Positions 30,978 to 42,514 of a stretch of 64,000 nt of DNA are shown here, in pieces. Numbering within the stretch: position 1 is the stretch's first letter; each line of letters starts with the position of its first letter. Source of the stretch: Acidaminococcales bacterium (GTDB lineage: Bacteria; Bacillota; Negativicutes; Acidaminococcales; JAISLQ01); the NCBI GenBank assembly GCA_031551525.1, contig JAVBNN010000009.1:1120-65119 (forward strand), in the 5' to 3' direction. The notes beneath the pieces were generated by a model. It saw nothing but the letters and a program-made list of their open reading frames with translations, had not been told where the DNA came from and made no database searches. The translations under genes and the position numbers were made by a program.

Positions 30978-31333
30978 TGTGAGCAAGAAAGGCAATCGCG
31001 CCCGTGCACGACACGGTCGAGGAAAGTCCGAGCTCCACAGGGCAGGGTGCTGGGTAACACCCAGCGGGGGCGACCCCAGGGAAAGTGCCACAGAAATGAG
31101 GACCGCCGGCATTTATGCCGGTAAGGGTGGAACGGTGCGGTAAGAGCGCACCAGCGGACGGGTGACCGTCCGGCTAGGTAAACCCCGCCTGGAGCAAGAC
31201 CAAATAGGGAAGGGATGAAGCTGCCCGCTGAACCTTCCGGGTGCGTCGCTAGAGCAGGCAGGTAACTGCCCGCCCAGATAAATGATTGCCACCGCTTTTG
31301 CGGAACAGAACTCGGCTTATTGACTGCTCACAC
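30978..31333 (+). ncRNA. rnpB: RNase P RNA, bacterial type A
   Basis: P4 strands GAGGAAAGTCCGAGC (31019-31033) and ACAGAACTCGGCTTA (31305-31319), plus GGTAAGGGTGGAACGGTGCGGTAAGAGCGCACC and CAGATAAATGATTGCC. The 5' GTGAGCA pairs with the 3' TGCTCAC to form P1. Ends are approximate to within about 5 nt. Confidence 0.92.
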
Positions 31334-31393
31334 TACCGTTTTTTTGCCCGCAGGAATTTGTTAAAAATCGCAAAATAAAAAGGAGGGATTTTT

Positions 31394-31731: not shown

Positions 31732-32100
31732 ATGAAACTTCGTGGAGTCAGGGGCGCGACTACCTGCCAAGAAGACCGGCGGGAAGCCATATTTGAAGCC
31801 GTACAGGAATTGTGGCGGCAACTGGAAACAGATAACAGCTTTACGGAAGATGACATCGGAGCGATAATCTTTAGTTCCACCCCCGACCTTTCGTCAGCTT
31901 TTCCCGCCGCCGCTGTCCGCGCACTGGGTTGGGAAAATGCTCCGCTCTTTGGTACAGTAGAAATAGACAACCCGGACGCGGTAAAAAAATGCGTTCGCGT
32001 CCTGGTTCTTTGGAACACAGATAGAGGACAAAGAGAGATAAAACACGCCTATCTGCGCGGCGCGGCAGTATTGCGGCCGGATAGGGCGAACATAAAATAA
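31732..32100 (+). CDS. aroH: Chorismate mutase, AroH class
   Basis: MKLRGVRGATTCQEDRREAI...IFSSTPDL...FPAAAVR...VRVLVLWNTD is the monofunctional AroH pattern. Confidence 0.85.
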   Translation: MKLRGVRGATTCQEDRREAIFEAVQELWRQLETDNSFTEDDIGAIIFSSTPDLSSAFPAAAVRALGWENAPLFGTVEIDNPDAVKKCVRVLVLWNTDRGQREIKHAYLRGAAVLRPDRANIK

Positions 32101-32128
32101 AAACCGTTTAAAAAACGGTTTTTATTTT
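32098..32128 (+). terminator. Rho-independent terminator after aroH
   Basis: AAACCGTTT (32101-32109), AAA loop and AAACGGTTT (32113-32121), followed by TTATTTT. Confidence 0.75.
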
Positions 32129-32178: not shown

Positions 32179-32230
32179 CATTAGAATGCTGCTTCTAAGT
32201 TTCAATAAACTTAGAAGCAGCATTCTAATG
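32179..32230. promoter_or_regulatory. Perfect 24-bp-arm inverted repeat, a candidate upstream activator sequence for the sigma-54 enhancer-binding protein
   Basis: CATTAGAATGCTGCTTCTAAGTTT (32179-32202), CAAT, then AAACTTAGAAGCAGCATTCTAATG (32207-32230). The centre is about 110 bp upstream of the -24/-12 promoter. Confidence 0.5.
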
Positions 32231-32311
32231 TTTAAGAAGAAAAACTTCGGTATAAAATCAGAAAATTCAAAACAGTTCAGTCTTTACCTACTGAATGTTC
32301 AAACAGATATT

Positions 32312-32327
32312 TGGCATGAAAATTGCT
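32312..32327 (+). promoter_or_regulatory. Sigma-54 (-24/-12) promoter
   Basis: TGGCATGAAAATTGCT has GG and GC in the canonical spacing (consensus TGGCAC-N5-TTGCW). It lies 55 nt upstream of the first gene of the operon, and a sigma-54 activator is encoded at the operon's end. Confidence 0.8.
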
Positions 32328-32382
32328 ATTTAATACAACAGGAGCGCAAAAGCTTACTAATTTTATTAAGAGGTGAGGAGCA

Positions 32383-33600
32383 GTGGGAGTAAAACTGACA
32401 CGTGAAGAAGAGGCCATGTTGCGTGGTGACAATGGTGAAGCCTGTAAAATAGCGATGGAAGTATTGATGCGCCTGGCCAAATCGCTTGGCGCGGAAGAAT
32501 TGGTTCCGGTGTCATCAGTGCAATGCATGGCGCATTATGGTTCGCTTCACGATGCGGGACTGGAATGGCTGGAAAAGCTGGCTGCACTAGGCGGAAAATG
32601 CTGTGTGCCGGCAACTCAAGACCCGGCGTCTATACCGTTTGACTGCTGGGAAGAGATGGGTTTTGACAAAGAATACGCAGCCAAGCAGCATCGTCTTGCC
32701 GCGGCTATTAAAGAATTGGGTGAAGTTTTGACCTGGAGCTGTACGCCTTACGCAGTTGGTCAAGTGCCGCGTTTTGGCCAAAACATCGCCTGGGCGGAAT
32801 CTTCAGCCGTGTCTTACGCAAACTCCGTTATCGGGGCAAGGACTAACAGGACGCCTGCCGGTATGGCCATCTGTACGGCTATAGCGGGCCGGGTACCGAA
32901 AGAACGTATGTATCTTGACGACAACAGGGTAGCAACCGTAAAAGTAAATATCAAAGATGCCGGCGAACTGACCGATCTTGATTATAACACCTTGGGCATA
33001 ATGCTGGGCAAATTTGCCGGTACCAAGATAGTGGCTTTGGACGGCATACCCACATCGGTGACTAACGATGGTTTGAAATATTTCGGCGCAGCGGCTGCGG
33101 CGAGCGGCAGTGTATCCATGTATCATATCCTTGGCGTAACACCCGAAGCCTTTGGCCGCGATCCGTTTGCCGGCAAAAAACCTGCCGAAGAAGTTACTTG
33201 GACACGTCAAGACATAAAAGCCATGGAAGAGTCGCTTACCACGAAAAATGCCGGAGAGGTGGATATAGTAGTAGTCGGCTGTCCGCACTATTCCATAAGC
33301 GAACTCATGAAACTGGCCAAACTGGTAAAAGGCAAAAAAATCAAAAAAGGCAAAGAATTTTGGGTATATACACCGTTTGAAACGGAAAATTTGGCCAAAC
33401 GCATGGGATTGGTGGATATTTTGGCAGGAGCCGGTGTTACTATCCTGGCCTCCAGCTGCCTTGTGATAAGCCCATTCCCGCGTTCATACAAAACACTGAT
33501 GACCGATTCCGGTAAAAATGCCAGCTATCTGCCATCAGAACACAATATAGAACTGGTATACGGCTCCATGGAAGACTGCGTAAAAGCGGTAATGAACTAA
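32383..33600 (+). CDS. Aconitase X catalytic (large) subunit, DUF521 family
   Basis: 405 aa starting MGVKLTREEEAMLRGDNGEACKIAMEVLMRLAKSLGAEELVPVSSVQCMAH..., with conserved Cys in SCTPY, VGCPH and SSCLV contexts. It is followed by the DUF126 partner. GTG start behind GAGGTGAGGAG. Confidence 0.75.
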   Translation: MGVKLTREEEAMLRGDNGEACKIAMEVLMRLAKSLGAEELVPVSSVQCMAHYGSLHDAGLEWLEKLAALGGKCCVPATQDPASIPFDCWEEMGFDKEYAAKQHRLAAAIKELGEVLTWSCTPYAVGQVPRFGQNIAWAESSAVSYANSVIGARTNRTPAGMAICTAIAGRVPKERMYLDDNRVATVKVNIKDAGELTDLDYNTLGIMLGKFAGTKIVALDGIPTSVTNDGLKYFGAAAAASGSVSMYHILGVTPEAFGRDPFAGKKPAEEVTWTRQDIKAMEESLTTKNAGEVDIVVVGCPHYSISELMKLAKLVKGKKIKKGKEFWVYTPFETENLAKRMGLVDILAGAGVTILASSCLVISPFPRSYKTLMTDSGKNASYLPSEHNIELVYGSMEDCVKAVMN

Positions 33601-33615
33601 GGGAGGGCAGAGCAG

Positions 33616-34047
33616 ATGGAAAAAATAATCATAAAAGGCCGGCCGGTAGTCGGCGGCGTAGTTGAAGGAAAAGCCCTGGTCAGCCAGGATGCTTTAGTTT
33701 GGTCACACGGCGTCTATCCGCCGACCGGAAAAATAAACGATGTACGGGTAAAATTGAACGGCACGAGCGTCAAAGACGTCATTTTAGTCTACCCTTATGG
33801 CAAAGGCTCCACCAGCACCTCTACCTGGATGCTGGAGACCTTCCGTTACGGCAATGGCCCCAAAGCTATTTTAAACATCGAAACAGAGGGCCTGATAGCC
33901 ATAGGTTCTATTTTAGCAGATACCCTCTACGGGATAAAATGCCCGGTCGTGGATCGTTTTGACAAAAATCCTCTGGAACTCATAGAAACTGGCGACCTAG
34001 TGCGTGTTGACGGTGAAACAGGCATTGTAGAAATAACCAAAGCGTAA
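33616..34047 (+). CDS. Aconitase X swivel (small) subunit, DUF126 family
   Basis: 143 aa with KGRPVVGGVVEGKALVSQDAL...GKINDV...VKDVILVYPYGKGSTSTSTWMLETFRYGNGPKAIL, the DUF126 pattern. Confidence 0.75.
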   Translation: MEKIIIKGRPVVGGVVEGKALVSQDALVWSHGVYPPTGKINDVRVKLNGTSVKDVILVYPYGKGSTSTSTWMLETFRYGNGPKAILNIETEGLIAIGSILADTLYGIKCPVVDRFDKNPLELIETGDLVRVDGETGIVEITKA

Positions 34048-34076
34048 AGTTTATTGATATGCATCAGGAGGGCATT

Positions 34077-35294
34077 ATGGGGGAAAAGGTGGCAGGCGCA
34101 CTCTCGGGAGTGAGAGTGCTGGATCTGACAAGAGTTTTGGCAGGTCCATTTTGTACGATGCTCCTTGGCGACATGGGAGCGGAGATCATAAAAATAGAAG
34201 AACCGGGAAAAGGTGACGATACCAGAGGCTATCCGCCATTCAAAGATGGTTTTAGCACTTATTTCGGCAATATGAATCGCGGCAAAAAAAGTATAACACT
34301 GGATCTAAAGAATGCAGAAGCGAAAAAAATTTTTCTATCTATGGTAGAAAAAGCCGATGTGGTCGTTGAAAACTATAAACCCGGCACTATGGATAAATTA
34401 GGCATAGGACACGAAGTACTGAAAAAAATCAATCCGATGATAATCTTTGCCTCGATATCCGGTTTTGGCCAGTTTGGACCATATAAAGACCGTCCGGGCT
34501 ACGATATCATAGGCCAGGCTATGGGTGGGCTGATGAGCGTGAGCGGCTGGCCGGACTCGCCGCCCACGAGGAGTGGAACGGCTATGGGCGACGTATTGGC
34601 GGGTCTGAATTGCTGTATTGGCATATTGGCCGCGCTGAAAGGGCGTGACGTTACCGGGAGAGGCCAGAGCGTCGATGTTTCACTGGTTGACTCGGTAGTT
34701 AGCGCCATGGAAACCATCATCCAGATATATTTGGTCGATGGGCGGGTACCGGGCAGAATAGGTAACCGTTATGAATTTATAGCGCCCTATGATACCTTTC
34801 AGGCCAAAGACGGCTGGGTAGTAGTCGCGGTGGGCAACAACGCAGTGTGGAAAAGATTTTGCACAGTTATTGGCCATGAAGAACTGATAGAACATCCGGA
34901 TTTAAAAAATAACGCCGACCGGGTGAACAACTACGGCAAAGTCACAGAGATCGTGTCAAACTGGGTCAAAGACAAAACTGTGGACGAAACGGTAGAACTC
35001 CTGCTCAAAAGCAGTATTCCTAGCGCGCCGATCAACGACGTGTCCCGTATAGTAAACGACCCGCATATAGCAGGGGCGCGGGAAATGTTTGTCGACATGG
35101 ACACACCGGGCGGGGGCAGTATGAAAGCGGTGGCCTGCCCGATAAAATTTTCGGAAACAAAAGCAGCTATATATAGCCCGCCACCTACTATCGGACAGCA
35201 CAATATACAAGTTTTACAAGAAGTATTGGGTTTAGAAACCAAACAAATAAATAAGTTAAATGAAAAAAGGATATTTGGCACTCAAACAATGTAA
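34077..35294 (+). CDS. Family III CoA-transferase (CaiB/BaiF/Frc type)
   Basis: LSGVRVLDLTRVLAGPFCTMLLGDMGAEIIKIEEPGKGDDTR...NRGKKSITLDLK...VVVENYKPGTMDKLG are family III hallmarks. Start at MGEKV (ATG 34077) behind CAGGAGGG. Confidence 0.88.
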   Translation: MGEKVAGALSGVRVLDLTRVLAGPFCTMLLGDMGAEIIKIEEPGKGDDTRGYPPFKDGFSTYFGNMNRGKKSITLDLKNAEAKKIFLSMVEKADVVVENYKPGTMDKLGIGHEVLKKINPMIIFASISGFGQFGPYKDRPGYDIIGQAMGGLMSVSGWPDSPPTRSGTAMGDVLAGLNCCIGILAALKGRDVTGRGQSVDVSLVDSVVSAMETIIQIYLVDGRVPGRIGNRYEFIAPYDTFQAKDGWVVVAVGNNAVWKRFCTVIGHEELIEHPDLKNNADRVNNYGKVTEIVSNWVKDKTVDETVELLLKSSIPSAPINDVSRIVNDPHIAGAREMFVDMDTPGGGSMKAVACPIKFSETKAAIYSPPPTIGQHNIQVLQEVLGLETKQINKLNEKRIFGTQTM

Positions 35295-35326
35295 AAAGCA
35301 TTTGTTTGTACTGAGGAGGGATAAAA

Positions 35327-36406
35327 TTGCAGGATTATAGTATCTCGTACCCCAAGAAAGTAATAATAGGTGATTTGACTATCCGGGATGGCTTGCAGCA
35401 CGAAGAAAAATTTATTTCTACGGACGCTAAGGTATACTATACCGAACAACTGATTTTAGCCGGTTTCAAGAGGATAGAGCTGACAAATCTAGGCAGCCCG
35501 GTAAACTTGCCGCAATTTAAAGACGCAGTGGATTTGTTGACACGGGTAATAAATAGCAGGGTACTGAAAAATGCTGGCATTAATATCAACGATATAGAAA
35601 TTACCGCTGTTACTATCAGGGAAAAAGCGGTAGATCGGGCCATAGAACTTAGAAAACAAGGTATTGGTCCCGACCGTATCTTGATGATGGTCTCGACAGA
35701 CGAGGAACACCACTTCGCCAATTCGGGCACTACCTTGACGGAATACTGGCGCGAAGCCGAACGCTGTATCAAAAAAGCGGCGGACGCCGGGATAAAAATG
35801 AACGGGACAGTTAGCACCATCTGGGGCAGCCCGATTTCCGGCCCGACCGACATGAAAGAAGCCATTGCTTTTACTAAACGTTGGTTAGATATAGGCGCCG
35901 CGGATGTAGAACATGCAGACCATGACGGCTCCGCTCCTCCCGACCAGACCTACCGGTACTTCTCCATGCTGTTGGATGCTATACCGCAGCCGGAAAAACA
36001 TTTGGCCCATTTCCACGCTACTCGTGGCTGGGGCCTGGCTAATGTGCTTGCAGCGCTTCAGGCAGGAATATGTGTGTTTGAAAGTACACTCGGCGGCATA
36101 GGCGGCCAGCCAGCCAACTTTATGGACGACTGTCCTATCCCCGGTACCGGCAGCTACTACTACAAAGACCCCAATACCGTAGGGCTGGTGAGCACGGAAG
36201 ACGTTGTAGTGATGATGGACGAGATGGGTATAGACACAGGGATAGATGTAGACAGACTGCTCAACTTGGGTCGGCTGTTCGAGAGGACTATAGGACGCAA
36301 GCTGCGTTCAGGCTCTATACACCACGGCAGAATACCGGAAGAAGCCAATGAAGAATATAAGAGAAAAGGCCTTAAAGAACGCAAGGAAAAACTTGGCGAA
36401 AAATAA
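35327..36406 (+). CDS. HMG-CoA-lyase-like (HMGL family) acyl-CoA lyase
   Basis: TIRDGLQHE at the N-terminus of a TIM-barrel-like sequence, then HFHATRGWGLANVLAALQAG and ESTLGGIGG. TTG start behind GAGGAGGG. Confidence 0.82.
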   Translation: MQDYSISYPKKVIIGDLTIRDGLQHEEKFISTDAKVYYTEQLILAGFKRIELTNLGSPVNLPQFKDAVDLLTRVINSRVLKNAGININDIEITAVTIREKAVDRAIELRKQGIGPDRILMMVSTDEEHHFANSGTTLTEYWREAERCIKKAADAGIKMNGTVSTIWGSPISGPTDMKEAIAFTKRWLDIGAADVEHADHDGSAPPDQTYRYFSMLLDAIPQPEKHLAHFHATRGWGLANVLAALQAGICVFESTLGGIGGQPANFMDDCPIPGTGSYYYKDPNTVGLVSTEDVVVMMDEMGIDTGIDVDRLLNLGRLFERTIGRKLRSGSIHHGRIPEEANEEYKRKGLKERKEKLGEK

Positions 36407-36459
36407 GGACAGGTTTTGCCGAGTAAAGCGTTGCGGAATAAAATGAAGGAGGATATATC

Positions 36460-37863
36460 GTGGATGTAATTATTATTCTGGCGTGCTTGTTTTTATTGAT
36501 GTATTTGTCATATAAAGGATTTTCTGTTATGTTGCTGGCGCCGACTTGCAGTCTTTTGGCTATTGCCCTCTTAGGCAAAACGGTATTACCGGCTTATTCA
36601 GAATTGTTCATGATAAAGACCGTAGGTTTTATTAAAAACTTTTTCCCGATATTTTTTCTGGGATCACTGTTTGGGCAACTTATGGGCGACAGCGGTTTTG
36701 CCCACAGCATTGCAAAAGCTATCATTACAAAAATCGGCAAAGACAAGGCTCTACTAGCGGTAGTATTGGCAGGAAATGTGCTGAGTTACGGCGGAGTAAG
36801 CGCTTTTGTAGTCATTTTTGCAATATATCCTTTTGCTACAGCGTTATATAGGGAAGCTGACATACCCAAAAGATTTATCATCGGCGCTATATTGCTAGGT
36901 TCATTCTGTGCCACCTTGGGTTGTTTGCCAGGTACGCCGCAGATACAAAACGTCATACCGGCAACTTACTTTATGACCAATATTTTTGCCGGACCGGGCA
37001 TCGGGATAGTGACTGGATTTGTATTATGGATAGTATTGTATTTTTATATGGCTTACCTACACAAAAAAGCTGCCGCAGCAGGCGAAGGCTATGGAATGGG
37101 ACATAAAAACGAGCCAGCTATCAAGGAAGATGAGAATGCAAACATAAACTGGTTGGTGGCTTTAGCACCTTTGGTAGTGGTGCTGGCGATAAACTTTTTC
37201 ATTACCTATTATATTTCATGGGATCCTAAGCTTTTAGATCCATATAAAGCCATGAAATTACCGATGTTGGCCAGCATAAAGAGTGTTCAAAGCTCATGGG
37301 CTCTGATCTGCGGTTTGTTCGTCGGAATACTGCTAACCATAGGCTTAGGCTGGAAAAACTTTGTCGACGGCTGGAAAGGTATAGTAAAATCACTGAATGC
37401 CGGAACGAATGGTTCGATTTTAGCAATCATGAACACTGCTTGCTTGGTCGGTTTCGGCAGTATAATTTCTACATCAGACGGTTTTAAAATAATCTTGGAC
37501 AGTTTGATGGCAATCAGGATAGGCGAGACGCCATTGTGGTCTATGGCAATAAGCATAAATCTTTTGGCGGCCATTACCGGTTCGGCCTCTGGTGGAGTGT
37601 CCATAGCATTAGATTTGATGGGTAAAGACTGGTTAGCTTGGGGGTTGAATAGCGGCGTTCCGGCCGAAGCGCTGACAAGGATAGCCGCCATAGCGTCGGG
37701 TGGCCTGAGCATGGTACCACATAATGGAGCACTGATAACAATGTTGACTGTCTGTGGGCTTACCCATAAGGAAACATACGGGCATGTGGCGGTAATATGT
37801 TTGATAAAGGGTTCGGCGGCATTCTTCGGGATATTGCTATATTATCTATTCGGCAGTTTTTAA
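36460..37863 (+). CDS. GntP-like organic-acid:H+ symporter (polytopic permease)
   Basis: 467 aa, highly hydrophobic. The N-terminus IIILACLFLLMYLSYKGFSVMLLAP..LLAIAL and FGQLMGDSGFAHSIAKAI resemble GntP/IT-superfamily carriers. The family call is by resemblance only. Confidence 0.6.
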   Translation: MDVIIILACLFLLMYLSYKGFSVMLLAPTCSLLAIALLGKTVLPAYSELFMIKTVGFIKNFFPIFFLGSLFGQLMGDSGFAHSIAKAIITKIGKDKALLAVVLAGNVLSYGGVSAFVVIFAIYPFATALYREADIPKRFIIGAILLGSFCATLGCLPGTPQIQNVIPATYFMTNIFAGPGIGIVTGFVLWIVLYFYMAYLHKKAAAAGEGYGMGHKNEPAIKEDENANINWLVALAPLVVVLAINFFITYYISWDPKLLDPYKAMKLPMLASIKSVQSSWALICGLFVGILLTIGLGWKNFVDGWKGIVKSLNAGTNGSILAIMNTACLVGFGSIISTSDGFKIILDSLMAIRIGETPLWSMAISINLLAAITGSASGGVSIALDLMGKDWLAWGLNSGVPAEALTRIAAIASGGLSMVPHNGALITMLTVCGLTHKETYGHVAVICLIKGSAAFFGILLYYLFGSF

Positions 37864-37922
37864 TATTGGGGGTAAGCGGGTGTAAAGCCTGATAATAACA
37901 AACATAACTGGAGGGATTATTT

Positions 37923-38297
37923 ATGAAAACGTACAAAAAAGTAACAATGAAAAATGTAGAAGTCTATTCGCCGCCCGGACACGGCGATACTTACAACAAG
38001 CGCCTCATTGGCCCTAAAGACGGCTCTATGCATGTCGAAGTGATACACGGGCAAATGGGCAACGTAGGCCACGCGGAACCGCATGTACACACGGAATTCG
38101 ATCAGTGCATGTATATGCTGACCGGTCGGCTGAGAGTTACTGGTGACGGAGAAGAAGTAGTTCTGGAAAAAGACGATTTCATTTTCTTCCCGAAAAACTC
38201 TTCGCATAAGGTGGTTTGCGAGACAGAAATAGCTACTTTTTTGGTAATATATGCCCCGCCGCGGGAAGCTTCCAGTGAAGCGGTCAACAAAGGCTGA
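37923..38297 (+). CDS. Cupin-domain protein
   Basis: 124 aa with the cupin metal motif GHAEPHVHTEFDQCMYMLTG...FFPKNSSHKV. Confidence 0.75.
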   Translation: MKTYKKVTMKNVEVYSPPGHGDTYNKRLIGPKDGSMHVEVIHGQMGNVGHAEPHVHTEFDQCMYMLTGRLRVTGDGEEVVLEKDDFIFFPKNSSHKVVCETEIATFLVIYAPPREASSEAVNKG

Positions 38298-38305
38298 TAT
38301 TACTG

Positions 38306-38344
38306 TAGGCTGCTGTCAAAAAATAGACAGCAGCCTATTTTTTA
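38306..38344 (+). terminator. Rho-independent terminator ending the sigma-54 operon
   Basis: TAGGCTGCTGTC (38306-38317), an 8-nt loop and GACAGCAGCCTA (38326-38337), followed by TTTTTT. Confidence 0.85.
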
Positions 38345-38470
38345 AAACGTTTGGATTTATTTTCCCGATATTGGTGTTCACAGTATGGTAAAATAAATAG
38401 GGTAAATATATTGGCTGCCTATAACATGCATTGCAACAGGCGATATTGTTTTTATTTTACGAGGTGTGAG

Positions 38471-39841
38471 ATGAAACGGGCAAAAGAATTTTTTGTGGAC
38501 AAAGAGACTATCGAGAGTTTGATAGGGGCGGTTTATGAAGGTATGCTTATCGCCGACCACGATGCAATTGTGCGTTATGTCAATGACAGTTATCTTGAAA
38601 TTGCCAATATAAAACGCGAAGATATAATAAATAAACCGCTGTCTGAAGTGCGGCCGGGCAGTGTGCTGCCGCAGGTGATAAGAACGGGTGAGGGCAGAGT
38701 CAATATATTTCGTAACGAAGGCGATACCGTATATGTAGTCGACCTCTCACCGATCAAAATGGACGGAAAGATCATCGGCGGGATATCGGTGGTCAAAGGC
38801 CTCGTACAGGCGCAAGAGTTGTCGAAAGAACTAGAAAAGTATATCGCTAAAACACAGGAACTGAAAGATACTGTGCACAGGGCATACCAGGCCTATTACA
38901 CTTTTGACGATATTGTCGGCGCTTCTGACGAATATAAAAAAGTCATAGCAATGGCGAAAAAAATGGCCGGGTATGACGAAGATGTGTTGATAATCGGCGA
39001 AAGCGGCACAGGAAAAGAATTGTTTGCCCACGCCATACATAACTACAGCCACAGGTTTTCCCAGCCGTTCGTAGCGGTAAACTGTTCTACACTTAGCCCG
39101 TCTTTGATCGAAAGCGAACTTTTCGGCTATAAAGCCGGCTCTTTTACCGGCGCTTTAAAAGGCGGCAAGGTAGGTTTGTTTTCTATTGCGGATAAAGGAA
39201 CTATTTTGTTGGATGAGATCGCCGAGTTGCCTCTTGAGATGCAAGCAAAATTCTTGCGGGTATTGCAGGAACGCAAGATAAGGCGGGTGGGCGACCTGCG
39301 GGAAGAAGACATAAATGTGCGCGTCATCGCGGCTACCAATAAGGATTTAAAGCAATTGACCAACGAAGGCAAATTCCGTGAAGACTTGTACTATCGTTTA
39401 TCGGCTATGACTTTAGAAGTGCCGAATCTGCAAAAAAGAAAAGACGACCTGAAATTGCTGGCCGATTACTTTTTGCATCAGTGGTGTAAACGGCGCAACC
39501 GGCAGGTGACTATAACCACGGAGGTGTACGAACGGATGAAGGAATACACCTGGCCGGGCAATGTGCGTGAACTGAAAAATGTCGTGCAGTTCTCCGCCTA
39601 TGCCAGTGAAAATAATATTATAACAGAACTGAATTTGCCTAAAACCACCTCTAAAGAGTCGGCAAGGGAAGAAACAAGCATCCCCCAGTATAACGGAAGA
39701 TTAAAAGACATCATTGCCGATACCGAGCGGCGAGTAATACATGATATGATCAAAAAATATGGCGACAGTGTAATCAACCGAAAACTGATCGCAGAAAAAC
39801 TGGGAATATCATTGGCGACTTTATATAATAAGGCCAAGTAA
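38471..39841 (+). CDS. Sigma-54-dependent transcriptional activator (PAS sensor, AAA+ domain, Fis-type HTH)
   Basis: PAS-like N-terminus (GMLIADHDAIVRYVNDSYLEI). AAA+ motifs GESGTGKE, ESELFGYKAGSFTGA (GAFTGA variant) and LLDEIAELPLEMQAKFLRVLQE. C-terminal HTH LIAEKLGISLATLYNK. Start moved to MKRAKEFF (ATG 38471). Confidence 0.9.
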   Translation: MKRAKEFFVDKETIESLIGAVYEGMLIADHDAIVRYVNDSYLEIANIKREDIINKPLSEVRPGSVLPQVIRTGEGRVNIFRNEGDTVYVVDLSPIKMDGKIIGGISVVKGLVQAQELSKELEKYIAKTQELKDTVHRAYQAYYTFDDIVGASDEYKKVIAMAKKMAGYDEDVLIIGESGTGKELFAHAIHNYSHRFSQPFVAVNCSTLSPSLIESELFGYKAGSFTGALKGGKVGLFSIADKGTILLDEIAELPLEMQAKFLRVLQERKIRRVGDLREEDINVRVIAATNKDLKQLTNEGKFREDLYYRLSAMTLEVPNLQKRKDDLKLLADYFLHQWCKRRNRQVTITTEVYERMKEYTWPGNVRELKNVVQFSAYASENNIITELNLPKTTSKESAREETSIPQYNGRLKDIIADTERRVIHDMIKKYGDSVINRKLIAEKLGISLATLYNKAK

Positions 39842-39856
39842 ATACCAAAAGCATAA

Positions 39857-39893
39857 TAAAATGACACTGGCCTTTTAAGCCAGTGTCATTTTT
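39857..39893. terminator. Bidirectional terminator between the activator gene and the convergent ABC ATPase
   Basis: ATGACACTGGC (39861-39871), a 7-nt loop and GCCAGTGTCAT (39879-39889), flanked by A and T runs. It overlaps the ATPase stop codon. Confidence 0.75.
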
Positions 39894-42162: not shown

Positions 42163-42374
42163 AATATACGCCTCCTTGATTTTATCTTTCTCTACTATGT
42201 TACTTTAATATATTAAAATGGTAAATGATAGTAAATATGCATTATTTTGCCACAAACTCTATTTTTCTTCTTCAAACTCCTTTTTTCAATGAAATTCATA
42301 GTATGTTACAAAAAACAACAAAAAATATAAAAATTCCCCGGTTGAAAAATATAACAATGTAGTGTATATTAAAA

Positions 42375-42503
42375 GTCGACGATTTTTATCCGAATCCATT
42401 TTAAATGGTACGGGGGACCCACTAACTGGGGTGAAGTTTCCAAATTATGGAAATAGAGCGGCTCCTTGCTCGAACCCGACAGCTAACCCCGGAGGAGAAG
42501 GGA
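42375..42503 (+). ncRNA. c-di-AMP riboswitch (ydaO-yuaA motif)
   Basis: Conserved blocks CCGAATCC (42390-42397), ACGGGGGACCCA (42410-42421), GGGGTGAA (42428-42435) and CGAACCCGACAGCTAACC (42471-42488), in the pseudo-symmetric order typical of ydaO. It lies immediately upstream of an NlpC/P60 gene, a classic genomic context. Ends are approximate. Confidence 0.85.
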
Positions 42504-42514
42504 GTAAAAGCAGT

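Follow-up and report, generated by a model that had tools for sequence, protein, structure and literature searches.

What does aconitase X (AcnX) do when it is encoded beside a CoA-transferase and a lyase? To our knowledge only two AcnX activities are known, hydroxyproline dehydratase and archaeal phosphomevalonate dehydratase (PMDh). The question is raised by a locus on contig JAVBNN010000009.1 of an Acidaminococcales bacterium, of which we analyzed a stretch of 64,000 nucleotides, here called the window. Seven genes lie on its plus strand at 32383-39841, the first six encoding AcnX large subunit, AcnX small subunit, a family III CoA-transferase, a lyase resembling 3-hydroxy-3-methylglutaryl-CoA lyase (HMGL), a permease and a cupin. 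The original prediction placed these six co-directional genes between a -24/-12 promoter and a strong terminator, followed by a PAS-AAA+-HTH activator. We found all of this to be correct, with the promoter element at 32311-32327 and the terminator at 38305-38344. We propose, at slightly better than even confidence, that the operon serves inducible catabolism of a branched C6 dicarboxylate through AcnX hydration and cleavage of 3-hydroxy-3-methylglutaryl-CoA (HMG-CoA), a route whose substrates and products we infer throughout. More tentatively, and with somewhat less than even confidence, the AcnX clade may be a hydratase of free 3-methylglutaconate (a dehydratase of 3-hydroxy-3-methylglutarate, HMG), constituting a third AcnX function that would work with a cysteine-less HMG-CoA lyase subfamily and a cupin isomerase. 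The new parts of such a pathway would be the Fe-S free-acid hydratase front end, the non-canonical lyase and the orphan cupin, the classical cleavage of HMG-CoA being already known.

Genomic contexts of the lyase point to HMG-CoA

To solved HMG-CoA lyases the window lyase shows about 30% identity, and in the alignment Arg20-Asp21 (RDGLQ) and His228/His230 (HxH) are invariant. It belongs to a "long" HMGL subfamily (360-378 aa, 65-84% identical) that is found in Negativicutes, Clostridia, Thermodesulfobacteriota and others and that appears uncharacterized. Orthologues 70-81% identical to the window lyase adjoin genes for class II HMG-CoA reductase, for enoyl-CoA hydratase, carboxyltransferase and acyl-CoA dehydrogenase, for thiolases and for 3-oxoacid CoA-transferases. 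In Koleobacter methoxysyntrophicus (locus L094), a 73%-identical lyase directly follows a class II HMG-CoA reductase (TIGR00532, 486 versus 260 bits) in a cluster that has a TctA carrier and stands under a sigma-54 activator, and the same reductase-lyase arrangement is seen in L098 and L121. The gene order in L094 matches the logic of mevalonate breakdown by mvaAB, the mevalonate catabolic operon of Pseudomonas mevalonii. The Dethiobacter locus (L093) combines a symporter, an AMP-ligase, an enoyl-CoA hydratase, the long lyase, a canonical lyase and an acyl-CoA dehydrogenase, while L095 and L099 hold an activator, a CoA-transferase (73% identical to that of the window), the lyase (81% in L095, 75% in L099) and a CitMHS carrier with no AcnX; two thiolase genes lie upstream in L095.

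We recovered 80 metagenome loci with the lyase and clustered the neighboring genes. A carboxyltransferase (PF01039) was the commonest partner (30 plus 9 of the 80 loci), followed by an enoyl-CoA hydratase directly upstream (21-23), an acyl-CoA dehydrogenase (13-14), an AMP-ligase (11), a family III CoA-transferase (6), an HMG-CoA reductase (2) and a 3-oxoacid CoA-transferase (1); AcnX was found in none. The first four of these are the enzyme types of a route from isovaleryl-CoA to HMG-CoA. Taken together, the reductase, the hydratase/carboxyltransferase/dehydrogenase and the CoA-transferase contexts are most simply read as marking the long lyase as the HMG-CoA lyase of many anaerobes, and the window lyase is predicted to convert HMG-CoA into acetoacetate plus acetyl-CoA.

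A second, different HMGL-type gene accompanies the long lyase in L093, L096 and L097 and in 19 of the 80 metagenome loci. It takes the form of a canonical lyase (308 aa), a paralogue of 325-330 aa that shares the glutamine loop described below, or a divergent 315-aa protein encoded on the opposite strand.

AcnX retains the head-group site of its characterized relatives

The nearest solved relative of the window AcnX is the T. kodakarensis phosphomevalonate dehydratase TkAcnX (E = 3e-66 for the large and 7e-19 for the small subunit), with hydroxyproline dehydratases second. Residues were mapped onto the AcnX sites from a published structural description (PMC8184944). Cys120, Cys300 and Cys359 of the large subunit align with the Fe-S ligands Cys110, Cys283 and Cys342 of TkAcnX and are invariant in the clade of the window. 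The carboxylate/C3-OH site is also retained (Glu139-Ser140-Ser141, Lys378 and Tyr382, for Glu129, Ser130, Ser131, Lys361 and Tyr365 of TkAcnX), as is the catalytic Ser65-Thr66 of the small subunit (Ser62-Thr63 in TkAcnX).

The distal part of the site is different. The phosphate-binding Gly48-Val49-Ser50, Asn53 and Asn79 of TkAcnX give way to Met49-Ala50-His51, Ser54 and Asp80, and the phosphate motifs AGVSY..N and TLNPAG to CM-AHYGS and TQDPAS. AGVS[YF] was present in all of the 60+ archaeal and Chloroflexi relatives sampled and absent from the window clade, whose large subunits carry the motif SVQ[AC]MA-H[YF]GSLH / TQDPAS. Newly invariant in the clade are, in the large subunit, His56 and Trp89 (within a 9-residue insertion) and, in the small one, Ser30-His31 and Ser67. 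The ring- and nitrogen-binding residues of the hydroxyproline enzyme AtAcnX (Trp35, Thr72, Asp203 and Ile206) are replaced by Ser30 and Ser67 of the small and Met49 and His51 of the large subunit. Because the head-group site is retained and the distal residues are replaced, the chemistry, interconversion of a beta-hydroxy acid and a 2-enoate, would be conserved and the pocket for the distal group new. HMG and mevalonate-5-phosphate differ in the distal group only. The window AcnX is predicted to be a [4Fe-4S] hydratase whose substrate is a free dicarboxylate of the beta-hydroxy or enoate type, our best guess being the pair 3-methylglutaconate and HMG. PMDh works reversibly and depends on a [4Fe-4S] cluster that is sensitive to oxygen (PMC10040528), which fits the strictly anaerobic hosts of these operons.

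The phylogenetic placement of the enzyme, left by the original prediction as a check, puts it in a clade of its own, apart from both characterized kinds. In a neighbor-joining tree of 85+ AcnX large subunits (built without bootstrap, with the hydroxyproline enzyme as outgroup), the window enzyme clusters with those of five loci in which an HMGL-type lyase is encoded alongside ("type A", motif HYGSLH[D/E]). Its sister, "type B" (motif HFGSLHI), is made up of sequences from gut and termite Clostridia, and the switch from type A to type B replaces Tyr52/Asp57 by Phe52/Ile57. Groups from Desulfobacterales and Nitrososphaerales branch further out, and none of the groups named here falls among the phosphomevalonate dehydratases with the AGVSY motif from archaea and Chloroflexi. 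Large subunits at least 57% identical to that of the window occur in about 10 GTDB species, and the top 120 matches in 5.8 billion proteins include 14 of type A and 94 of type B. Four bacterial AcnX subclasses, IIc-IIf, have been described as uncharacterized (Watanabe et al., 2021); the window clade is presumably one of them. Literature searches on aconitase X with CoA-transferase, DUF521/DUF126, 3-methylglutaconate hydratase, and HMG with CoA-transferase returned no third AcnX function and no such operon.

Both characterized identities were considered and rejected. Phosphomevalonate dehydratase was rejected on its curated small-subunit model (NF003046, 102.7 bits versus a 163-bit cut-off), the replaced phosphate loop, the tree position and a context devoid of mevalonate-pathway genes, and hydroxyproline dehydratase on its equivalog model (NF051439, 293 bits for the large and 61 bits for the small subunit versus a cut-off of 700), the landmark residues, the tree position and the context.

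AcnX-like large subunits from Nitrososphaerales metagenome-assembled genomes (L014-L019) share the HxxSLH/VDPAS motifs of the window clade and lack two of the three Fe-S cysteines, having FGVPH and STDAE where the window clade has GCPH and SSCLV; these proteins may be cluster-less or use other ligands.

Type B AcnX (about 60% identical to the window enzyme; L003-L010, L085-L087 and L091) always adjoins AtuA (PF07287/DUF1446) and AtuA_ferredoxin (PF23544/DUF4387) instead of a lyase. These loci mostly share with the window the activator family, the -24/-12 promoter and TTCTAA/TTAGAA repeats, and they occur with or without a cupin, a family III CoA-transferase, dicarboxylate carriers, or a Na/Ala symporter plus M20 peptidase. 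Searches of the literature on DUF1446/DUF4387/AtuA found no function, and the PDB holds no solved relative of AtuA; DUF1446/AtuA has been found beside methylaspartate ammonia-lyase (PMC4682846). The pairing with AcnX could serve as a lead to AtuA function.

Related operons link AcnX to CoA activation and point to acetoacetate as a probable product

Type A AcnX (69-83% identical) always occurs with an HMGL-type lyase and a CoA-activating enzyme. In the window, L001, L082, L088 and L092 a family III CoA-transferase fills the latter role; in L089, a Thermodesulfobacteriota locus, it falls to a SucCD-like ligase, and the lyase there is a canonical HMG-CoA lyase (NF004283, 420 versus 246 bits). The operons of L082/L083, L088 and L092 end in a two-subunit 3-oxoacid CoA-transferase (TIGR02429 and TIGR02428, both above cut-off), and L100 also has one; these enzymes in sibling operons point to acetoacetate as the product. 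The cupin (67-77% identical) and the long lyase are also found in L096 and L097, where a crotonase-type enoyl-CoA hydratase and a SucCD-like ligase stand in for AcnX and the CoA-transferase. The hydratase-less operons L094, L095 and L099 have no cupin. This pattern fits hydration either of the free acid (AcnX, then CoA transfer) or of the CoA ester (ligase, then crotonase), and the lack of the cupin in these hydratase-less operons fits a cupin acting on an unsaturated species, with the unsaturated acid as an extra substrate. HMG being the best explanation for the acid that CoA-transferase and lyase handle, the simplest reaction for AcnX is the reversible hydration of 3-methylglutaconate to HMG.

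The CoA-transferase probably starts at ATG 34077, behind an AGGAGG ribosome-binding site, giving the 405-aa product called on contig L081. Its translation contains the motif GYDIIGQA, whose aspartate we take to be the equivalent of catalytic Asp169 of Frc. The PDB matches include YfdE (1e-88) and human succinate-hydroxymethylglutarate CoA-transferase, SUGCT (5e-86), with no solved relative markedly closer than SUGCT; similarity to SUGCT would be consistent with HMG activation yet is not discriminating. All curated equivalog cut-offs are missed, with transferases of the glutarate/HMG type scoring equal to the mesaconate type. We predict an HMG:acyl-CoA CoA-transferase, and the contexts of CoA-transferase and lyase together suggest a self-sufficient module for HMG utilization, with HMG passing through HMG-CoA and ending as acetoacetate plus acetyl-CoA.

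The description of the carrier as GntP-like finds weak support in the window protein itself, which aligns over its full length with PF02447 but scores 13.4 bits against a gathering score of 22.5 (E=0.03); 7 of 10 homologues at 30-50% identity exceed that score. The permease is the predicted substrate carrier, but having no homologue in any related locus and no NCBIfam match, it gives no clue to the substrate. Carriers at this operon position differ and are not homologous: GntP-like in the window, CitMHS/DASS in L082, TRAP in L088, L092, L096 and L097, ABC in L089 and MatC/CitMHS in L003 and L006. The cupin has a putative metal site (His54/His56/Gln61/His95) and invariant Arg27 and Arg114, and sequence and fold searches of the PDB returned only generic small metal cupins (TM1459, RemF, KdgF, EutQ and a quercetinase domain). 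It is possibly an isomerase of the unsaturated acid.

The sigma-54 promoter is conserved with the activator

A -24/-12 pattern allowing one mismatch matched the 64-kb window 9 times versus 5.8 expected. This count alone is not significant, so conservation across loci was used as evidence instead. The sequence TTGGCATGAAAATTGCT is a good match and lies 56 nt before the start codon of the AcnX large subunit. TGGCAY-N5-TTGC precedes the first operon gene by 50-160 nt in L001, L082, L088, L092, L095, L003, L004, L005, L008, L009 and L085, and by about 315 nt in L010, which brings the motif to 12 other loci with a PAS activator, most of such related loci. It is absent from L006, L007, L089 and L091, related loci with LacI, IclR or LysR regulators. 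The promoter first recognized from the window alone is thereby borne out; it has the GG-N10-GC core, the TGGCAC-N5-TTGCW context, a suitable distance and a candidate upstream activator site, and RpoN dependence is predicted. No rpoN gene lies in the 64-kb window.

Upstream of the promoter we found a perfect 24+24-nt palindrome, unmentioned in the original prediction, at a distance of 82-133 nt from the -24 element. Four TTAGAA/TTCTAA half-sites fall within it versus 0.09 expected (89-131 nt upstream of the -24 element), and such half-sites are enriched at the equivalent position in most activator loci (L095, L085, L003-L005, L008 and L009). The palindrome is a candidate upstream activating sequence for the sigma-54 activator. 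That protein has a PAS domain, a sigma-54 interaction AAA+ domain with a GSFTGA loop and the Walker A motif GESGTGKE, and HTH_50. Its start is likely ATG 38471 behind GAGGTG, which gives 456 aa like its homologues, rather than TTG 38351; a possible extended -10 element, TGGTAAAAT, was seen by eye only at 38386-38394, upstream of this start. The closest relative of the activator, at 59% identity, is that of L095, whose operon consists of CoA-transferase, lyase and carrier only, an indication that the two share an inducer independent of AcnX.

Further sigma-54-activator organic-acid clusters are present in two of the related loci: BKACE with CitMHS and a DHDPS-like gene in L082 (1776-9810), and BKACE with a short-chain fatty acid transporter, an SDR and a PrpR-like activator in L097 (13934-20381). 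Anaerobes of this kind appear to keep arrays of sigma-54-controlled organic-acid operons.

Operon layout and boundaries

Gaps inside the six-gene block are 11-59 nt, each gene is preceded by a Shine-Dalgarno sequence, and the two AcnX genes adjoin with a gap of 15 nt. We found no internal terminator within the block, and an Rfam search found no RNA element in the operon leader. The strong terminator originally placed at 38306-38344 proved to be a 13-bp stem with a T-run. The operon is flanked by a thioredoxin/chorismate mutase pair upstream and by a convergent amino-acid ABC transporter downstream (Table 1).

Table 1. Positions of the operon genes, regulatory elements and boundaries in the window.
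Feature	Position	Strand	Evidence or remark
Terminator-like hairpin	32097..32125	+	Inverted repeat AAAACCGTTT/AAACGGTTTT plus T-run; ends upstream thioredoxin and chorismate mutase genes; 5' boundary
Palindrome, candidate upstream activating sequence	32179..32230	.	24-nt arms, 4-nt spacer, 100% complementary
Sigma-54 type -24/-12 promoter	32311..32327	+	TTGGCATGAAAATTGCT
AcnX large (catalytic) subunit, 405 aa	32383-33600	+	PF04412, 460 bits (gathering score 31.5)
AcnX small (swivel) subunit, 143 aa	33616-34047	+	PF01989, 70 bits (gathering score 27)
Family III CoA-transferase	34059-35294, probable start 34077	+	PF02515, 455 bits, profile positions 1-366 of 366
"Long" HMGL-like DRE-TIM lyase, 359 aa	35327-36406	+	PF00682, 105 bits
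Probable divergent GntP-family (ion-transporter superfamily) permease, 467 aa	36460-37863	+	PF02447, E=0.03
Small single-domain cupin, 124 aa	37923-38297	+	Cupin_2
Intrinsic terminator closing the six-gene operon	38305..38344	+	13-bp stem 38305-38338, then T-run
Sigma-54 activator, 456 aa	38471-39841 (ORF opens TTG 38351)	+	PF00158, 223 bits; PAS; HTH_50
Hairpin between activator gene and convergent ABC-transporter genes	39858..39892	.	3' boundary

Two structured RNAs lie elsewhere in the window. A class A bacterial RNase P RNA (30980-31334, plus strand, 305 bits) is found between an HD-domain gene and the thioredoxin gene, and a c-di-AMP (ydaO-type) riboswitch (42378-42509, plus strand, 89 bits) precedes a cell-wall hydrolase gene (NlpC/P60 plus PG_binding_1). 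The reading frame listed for the hydrolase opens at 42362, before the riboswitch, so its true start must lie further downstream.

Discussion

Assembled from these comparisons, the proposed pathway would run as follows. The PAS activator, made from its own transcript, would bind the TTCTAA/TTAGAA palindrome and, on sensing the acid, drive sigma-54 RNA polymerase from the -24/-12 promoter. The GntP-like permease would import the acid, and the two-subunit AcnX, as an oxygen-sensitive [4Fe-4S] (de)hydratase, would hydrate free 3-methylglutaconate to HMG in a dicarboxylate counterpart of the reversible archaeal reaction between mevalonate-5-phosphate and trans-anhydromevalonate-phosphate. The cupin would probably turn another isomer of the unsaturated acid, differing in E/Z geometry or double-bond position, into the substrate of AcnX. 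The family III CoA-transferase would then make HMG-CoA, a step at which HMG itself could enter, and the long lyase would cleave it to acetoacetate and acetyl-CoA. Acetoacetate would finally be activated by a 3-oxoacid CoA-transferase encoded elsewhere in the genome. HMG is documented as a nutrient of host origin for bacteria in the gut (PMC11343714).

The four-step scheme put forward from the window alone, namely uptake, AcnX hydration, CoA transfer and cleavage to acetyl-CoA plus a keto-acid, fits all of the comparative evidence. Among the candidate substrates, the contexts of the lyase orthologues favor the C6 pair 3-methylglutaconate/HMG and speak against the C5 acids mesaconate, citraconate, citramalate and itaconate. 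The idea that AcnX replaces the usual hydratase fits as well. Rather than the suggested itaconate or citramalyl-CoA routes, the closest parallel is the lower pathway of leucine and mevalonate breakdown, with AcnX in place of methylglutaconyl-CoA hydratase.

Several observations weigh against this interpretation. On the canonical HMG-CoA lyase model NF004283 the window lyase reaches 166 bits versus a cut-off of 246 (179 bits for the Koleobacter orthologue). Throughout the long subfamily the catalytic cysteine of GGCP is replaced by glutamine (GGQP), with a 17-residue insertion, and an asparagine metal ligand by leucine, positions that we take to be Cys266 and Asn275 of human HMGCL; with both replaced, the mechanism and possibly the specificity would differ from those of textbook HMGL. 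The commonest carboxyltransferase neighbor is divergent (140 bits to mmdA), so that "Liu-like" describes a pattern and not an identification, and the presence of two HMGL-type lyases in L093, L096 and L097 is unexpected if both cleave HMG-CoA. The top NCBIfam match of the CoA-transferase is succinyl-CoA:mesaconate CoA-transferase (356 bits, far under the 700-bit cut-off). In AcnX, the invariant Asp80 is unexpected in a pocket meant for a distal carboxylate, and the sister AcnX clade is paired with AtuA rather than with a lyase. The window contains no 3-oxoacid CoA-transferase or thiolase, so that under the proposed pathway the former must lie elsewhere in the genome, and we know of no natural source of free 3-methylglutaconate for anaerobes.

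Under a rival reading, the same architecture would serve another beta-hydroxy or unsaturated di- or tricarboxylate, which AcnX would (de)hydrate or isomerize, with the lyase cleaving the matching 3-hydroxyacyl-CoA; candidates are glutaconate/3-hydroxyglutarate, trans- or cis-aconitate/citrate, a 3-alkyl homologue of HMG or a hydroxy-acid isomer of HMG. This generic rival is unlikely in our estimate but is the best of the alternatives. The AcnX specificity pocket is unlike that of any characterized AcnX, the active-site loop of the long lyase is rebuilt, sibling carriers are of citrate or di-/tricarboxylate types (CitMHS, DASS, TRAP, MatC), Acidaminococcus ferments trans-aconitate, and the two lyase paralogues of some clusters hint at more than one substrate. 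However, adjacency to HMG-CoA reductase fixes HMG-CoA as a substrate of a 73%-identical orthologue, the 3-oxoacid CoA-transferases point to acetoacetate, and genes handling oxaloacetate or malonate semialdehyde are absent from the operon.

The main specific rival is a C5 route, in which AcnX would hydrate citraconate, mesaconate or an itaconate isomer to citramalate, which the CoA-transferase would turn into citramalyl-CoA for cleavage by the HMGL-like lyase to pyruvate and acetyl-CoA. In Chloroflexus a family III (R)-citramalate CoA-transferase is paired with an HMGL-family (R)-citramalyl-CoA lyase, and the best NCBIfam match of the window CoA-transferase is the mesaconate enzyme named above. 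Citramalate, a 3-hydroxy acid when counted from its C4 carboxylate, would fit the conserved AcnX head-group site, and AtuA, the partner in the sister clade, has been found beside methylaspartate ammonia-lyase (PMC4682846). Yet the mesaconate match reaches only half its cut-off, at a score equaled by glutarate/HMG-type transferases, and the reductase, hydratase/carboxyltransferase/dehydrogenase, thiolase and 3-oxoacid CoA-transferase neighbors have no role in a pyruvate-forming route; we regard the C5 route as improbable.

That the six genes are merely neighbors, separately transcribed and functionally unrelated, is very improbable. The few weak sigma-70-like matches inside the block do not exceed the shuffled expectation, whereas the short gaps, the absence of an internal terminator and the single conserved sigma-54 promoter speak for one unit, and L001, L082/L083, L088 and L092 keep the same gene set and order although their proteins are 65-85% identical and their flanks differ. 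Independent transcription of unrelated neighbors, an outcome named in advance as contrary to the prediction, is thus not what the relatives show. We give practically no credence to a hydroxyproline dehydratase, which automatic names on a few homologues (P0108 and P0112) and the 293-bit match to NF051439 might suggest, since that match is far under the 700-bit cut-off, the nitrogen- and ring-binding landmarks are replaced (Met49, His51, Ser30 and Ser67), the three cysteine ligands are those of [4Fe-4S] type II enzymes, proline/hydroxyproline genes are absent nearby, and the enzyme falls in a separate clade instead of clustering tightly with hydroxyproline dehydratases.

If the proposed pathway through 3-methylglutaconate and HMG is correct, it would add a third physiological AcnX function, assign one orphan subclass among IIc-IIf and give anaerobes a CoA-independent way into HMG-CoA lyase catabolism, and the sister clade would give a first biochemical handle on the long-orphan AtuA protein. 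In any case, the locus gives one orphan AcnX subclass a specific hypothesis. The proposed substrate is the dicarboxylate analogue of the archaeal one and bears on the divergence of the archaeal mevalonate-pathway enzyme and bacterial catabolic ones. Many anaerobes appear to use an HMG-CoA lyase from an unstudied subfamily without the textbook catalytic cysteine, and HMG-type acids, host- and plant-derived gut nutrients, would be served in Negativicutes and Clostridia by sigma-54-controlled operons of their own. The pathway would be a rare add-on, with about 14 of the top 120 database relatives being of type A and none of the 80 metagenome lyase loci holding AcnX, and its end chemistry is classical.

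Comparison with known systems

With archaeal PMDh (TkAcnX, PDB 7cnr/7cns, and ApPMDh) the window AcnX shares two subunits, the three Fe-S cysteines, the carboxylate/C3-OH site and the catalytic serine, and in the proposed reaction, too, a 3-methyl-2-enoate would be reversibly hydrated to a 3-hydroxy-3-methyl acid. It differs in sequence (about 38-40% identity), in the replaced phosphate loop and Asn53/Asn79, in the 9-residue insertion with Trp89 and in its separate clade, and also in setting, being found in a bacterial, anaerobic host in a catabolic context of CoA-transferase and lyase rather than among mevalonate-pathway genes. The hydroxyproline dehydratase AcnX has superfamily, fold and carboxylate/OH recognition in common with the window enzyme but uses a [2Fe-2S] cluster with another ligand set, and its substrate landmarks and hydroxyproline gene context are not found in the window.

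SUGCT (EC 2.8.3.13; PDB 9br6), which activates HMG and glutarate, is a family III enzyme that matches the window CoA-transferase over its full length, although it is no closer to it than is YfdE, an acetyl-CoA:oxalate CoA-transferase. The Chloroflexus succinyl-CoA:(R)-citramalate CoA-transferase and its lyase resemble the window pair in setting a family III transferase beside an HMGL-family lyase for a tertiary hydroxy-dicarboxylate, but they yield pyruvate and not acetoacetate.

The leucine/isovalerate pathway (LiuC/AUH and LiuE/HMGCL) and the mvaAB operon have in common with the proposed pathway the end reaction, from HMG-CoA to acetoacetate plus acetyl-CoA, and orthologues of the window lyase occupy these very contexts in other anaerobes. 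In the leucine pathway, however, a crotonase hydrates the CoA ester and the lyase carries the GGCP cysteine, whereas in the window the free acid would be hydrated by an Fe-S AcnX before CoA is attached, and the lyase is of the long subfamily that lacks this cysteine.

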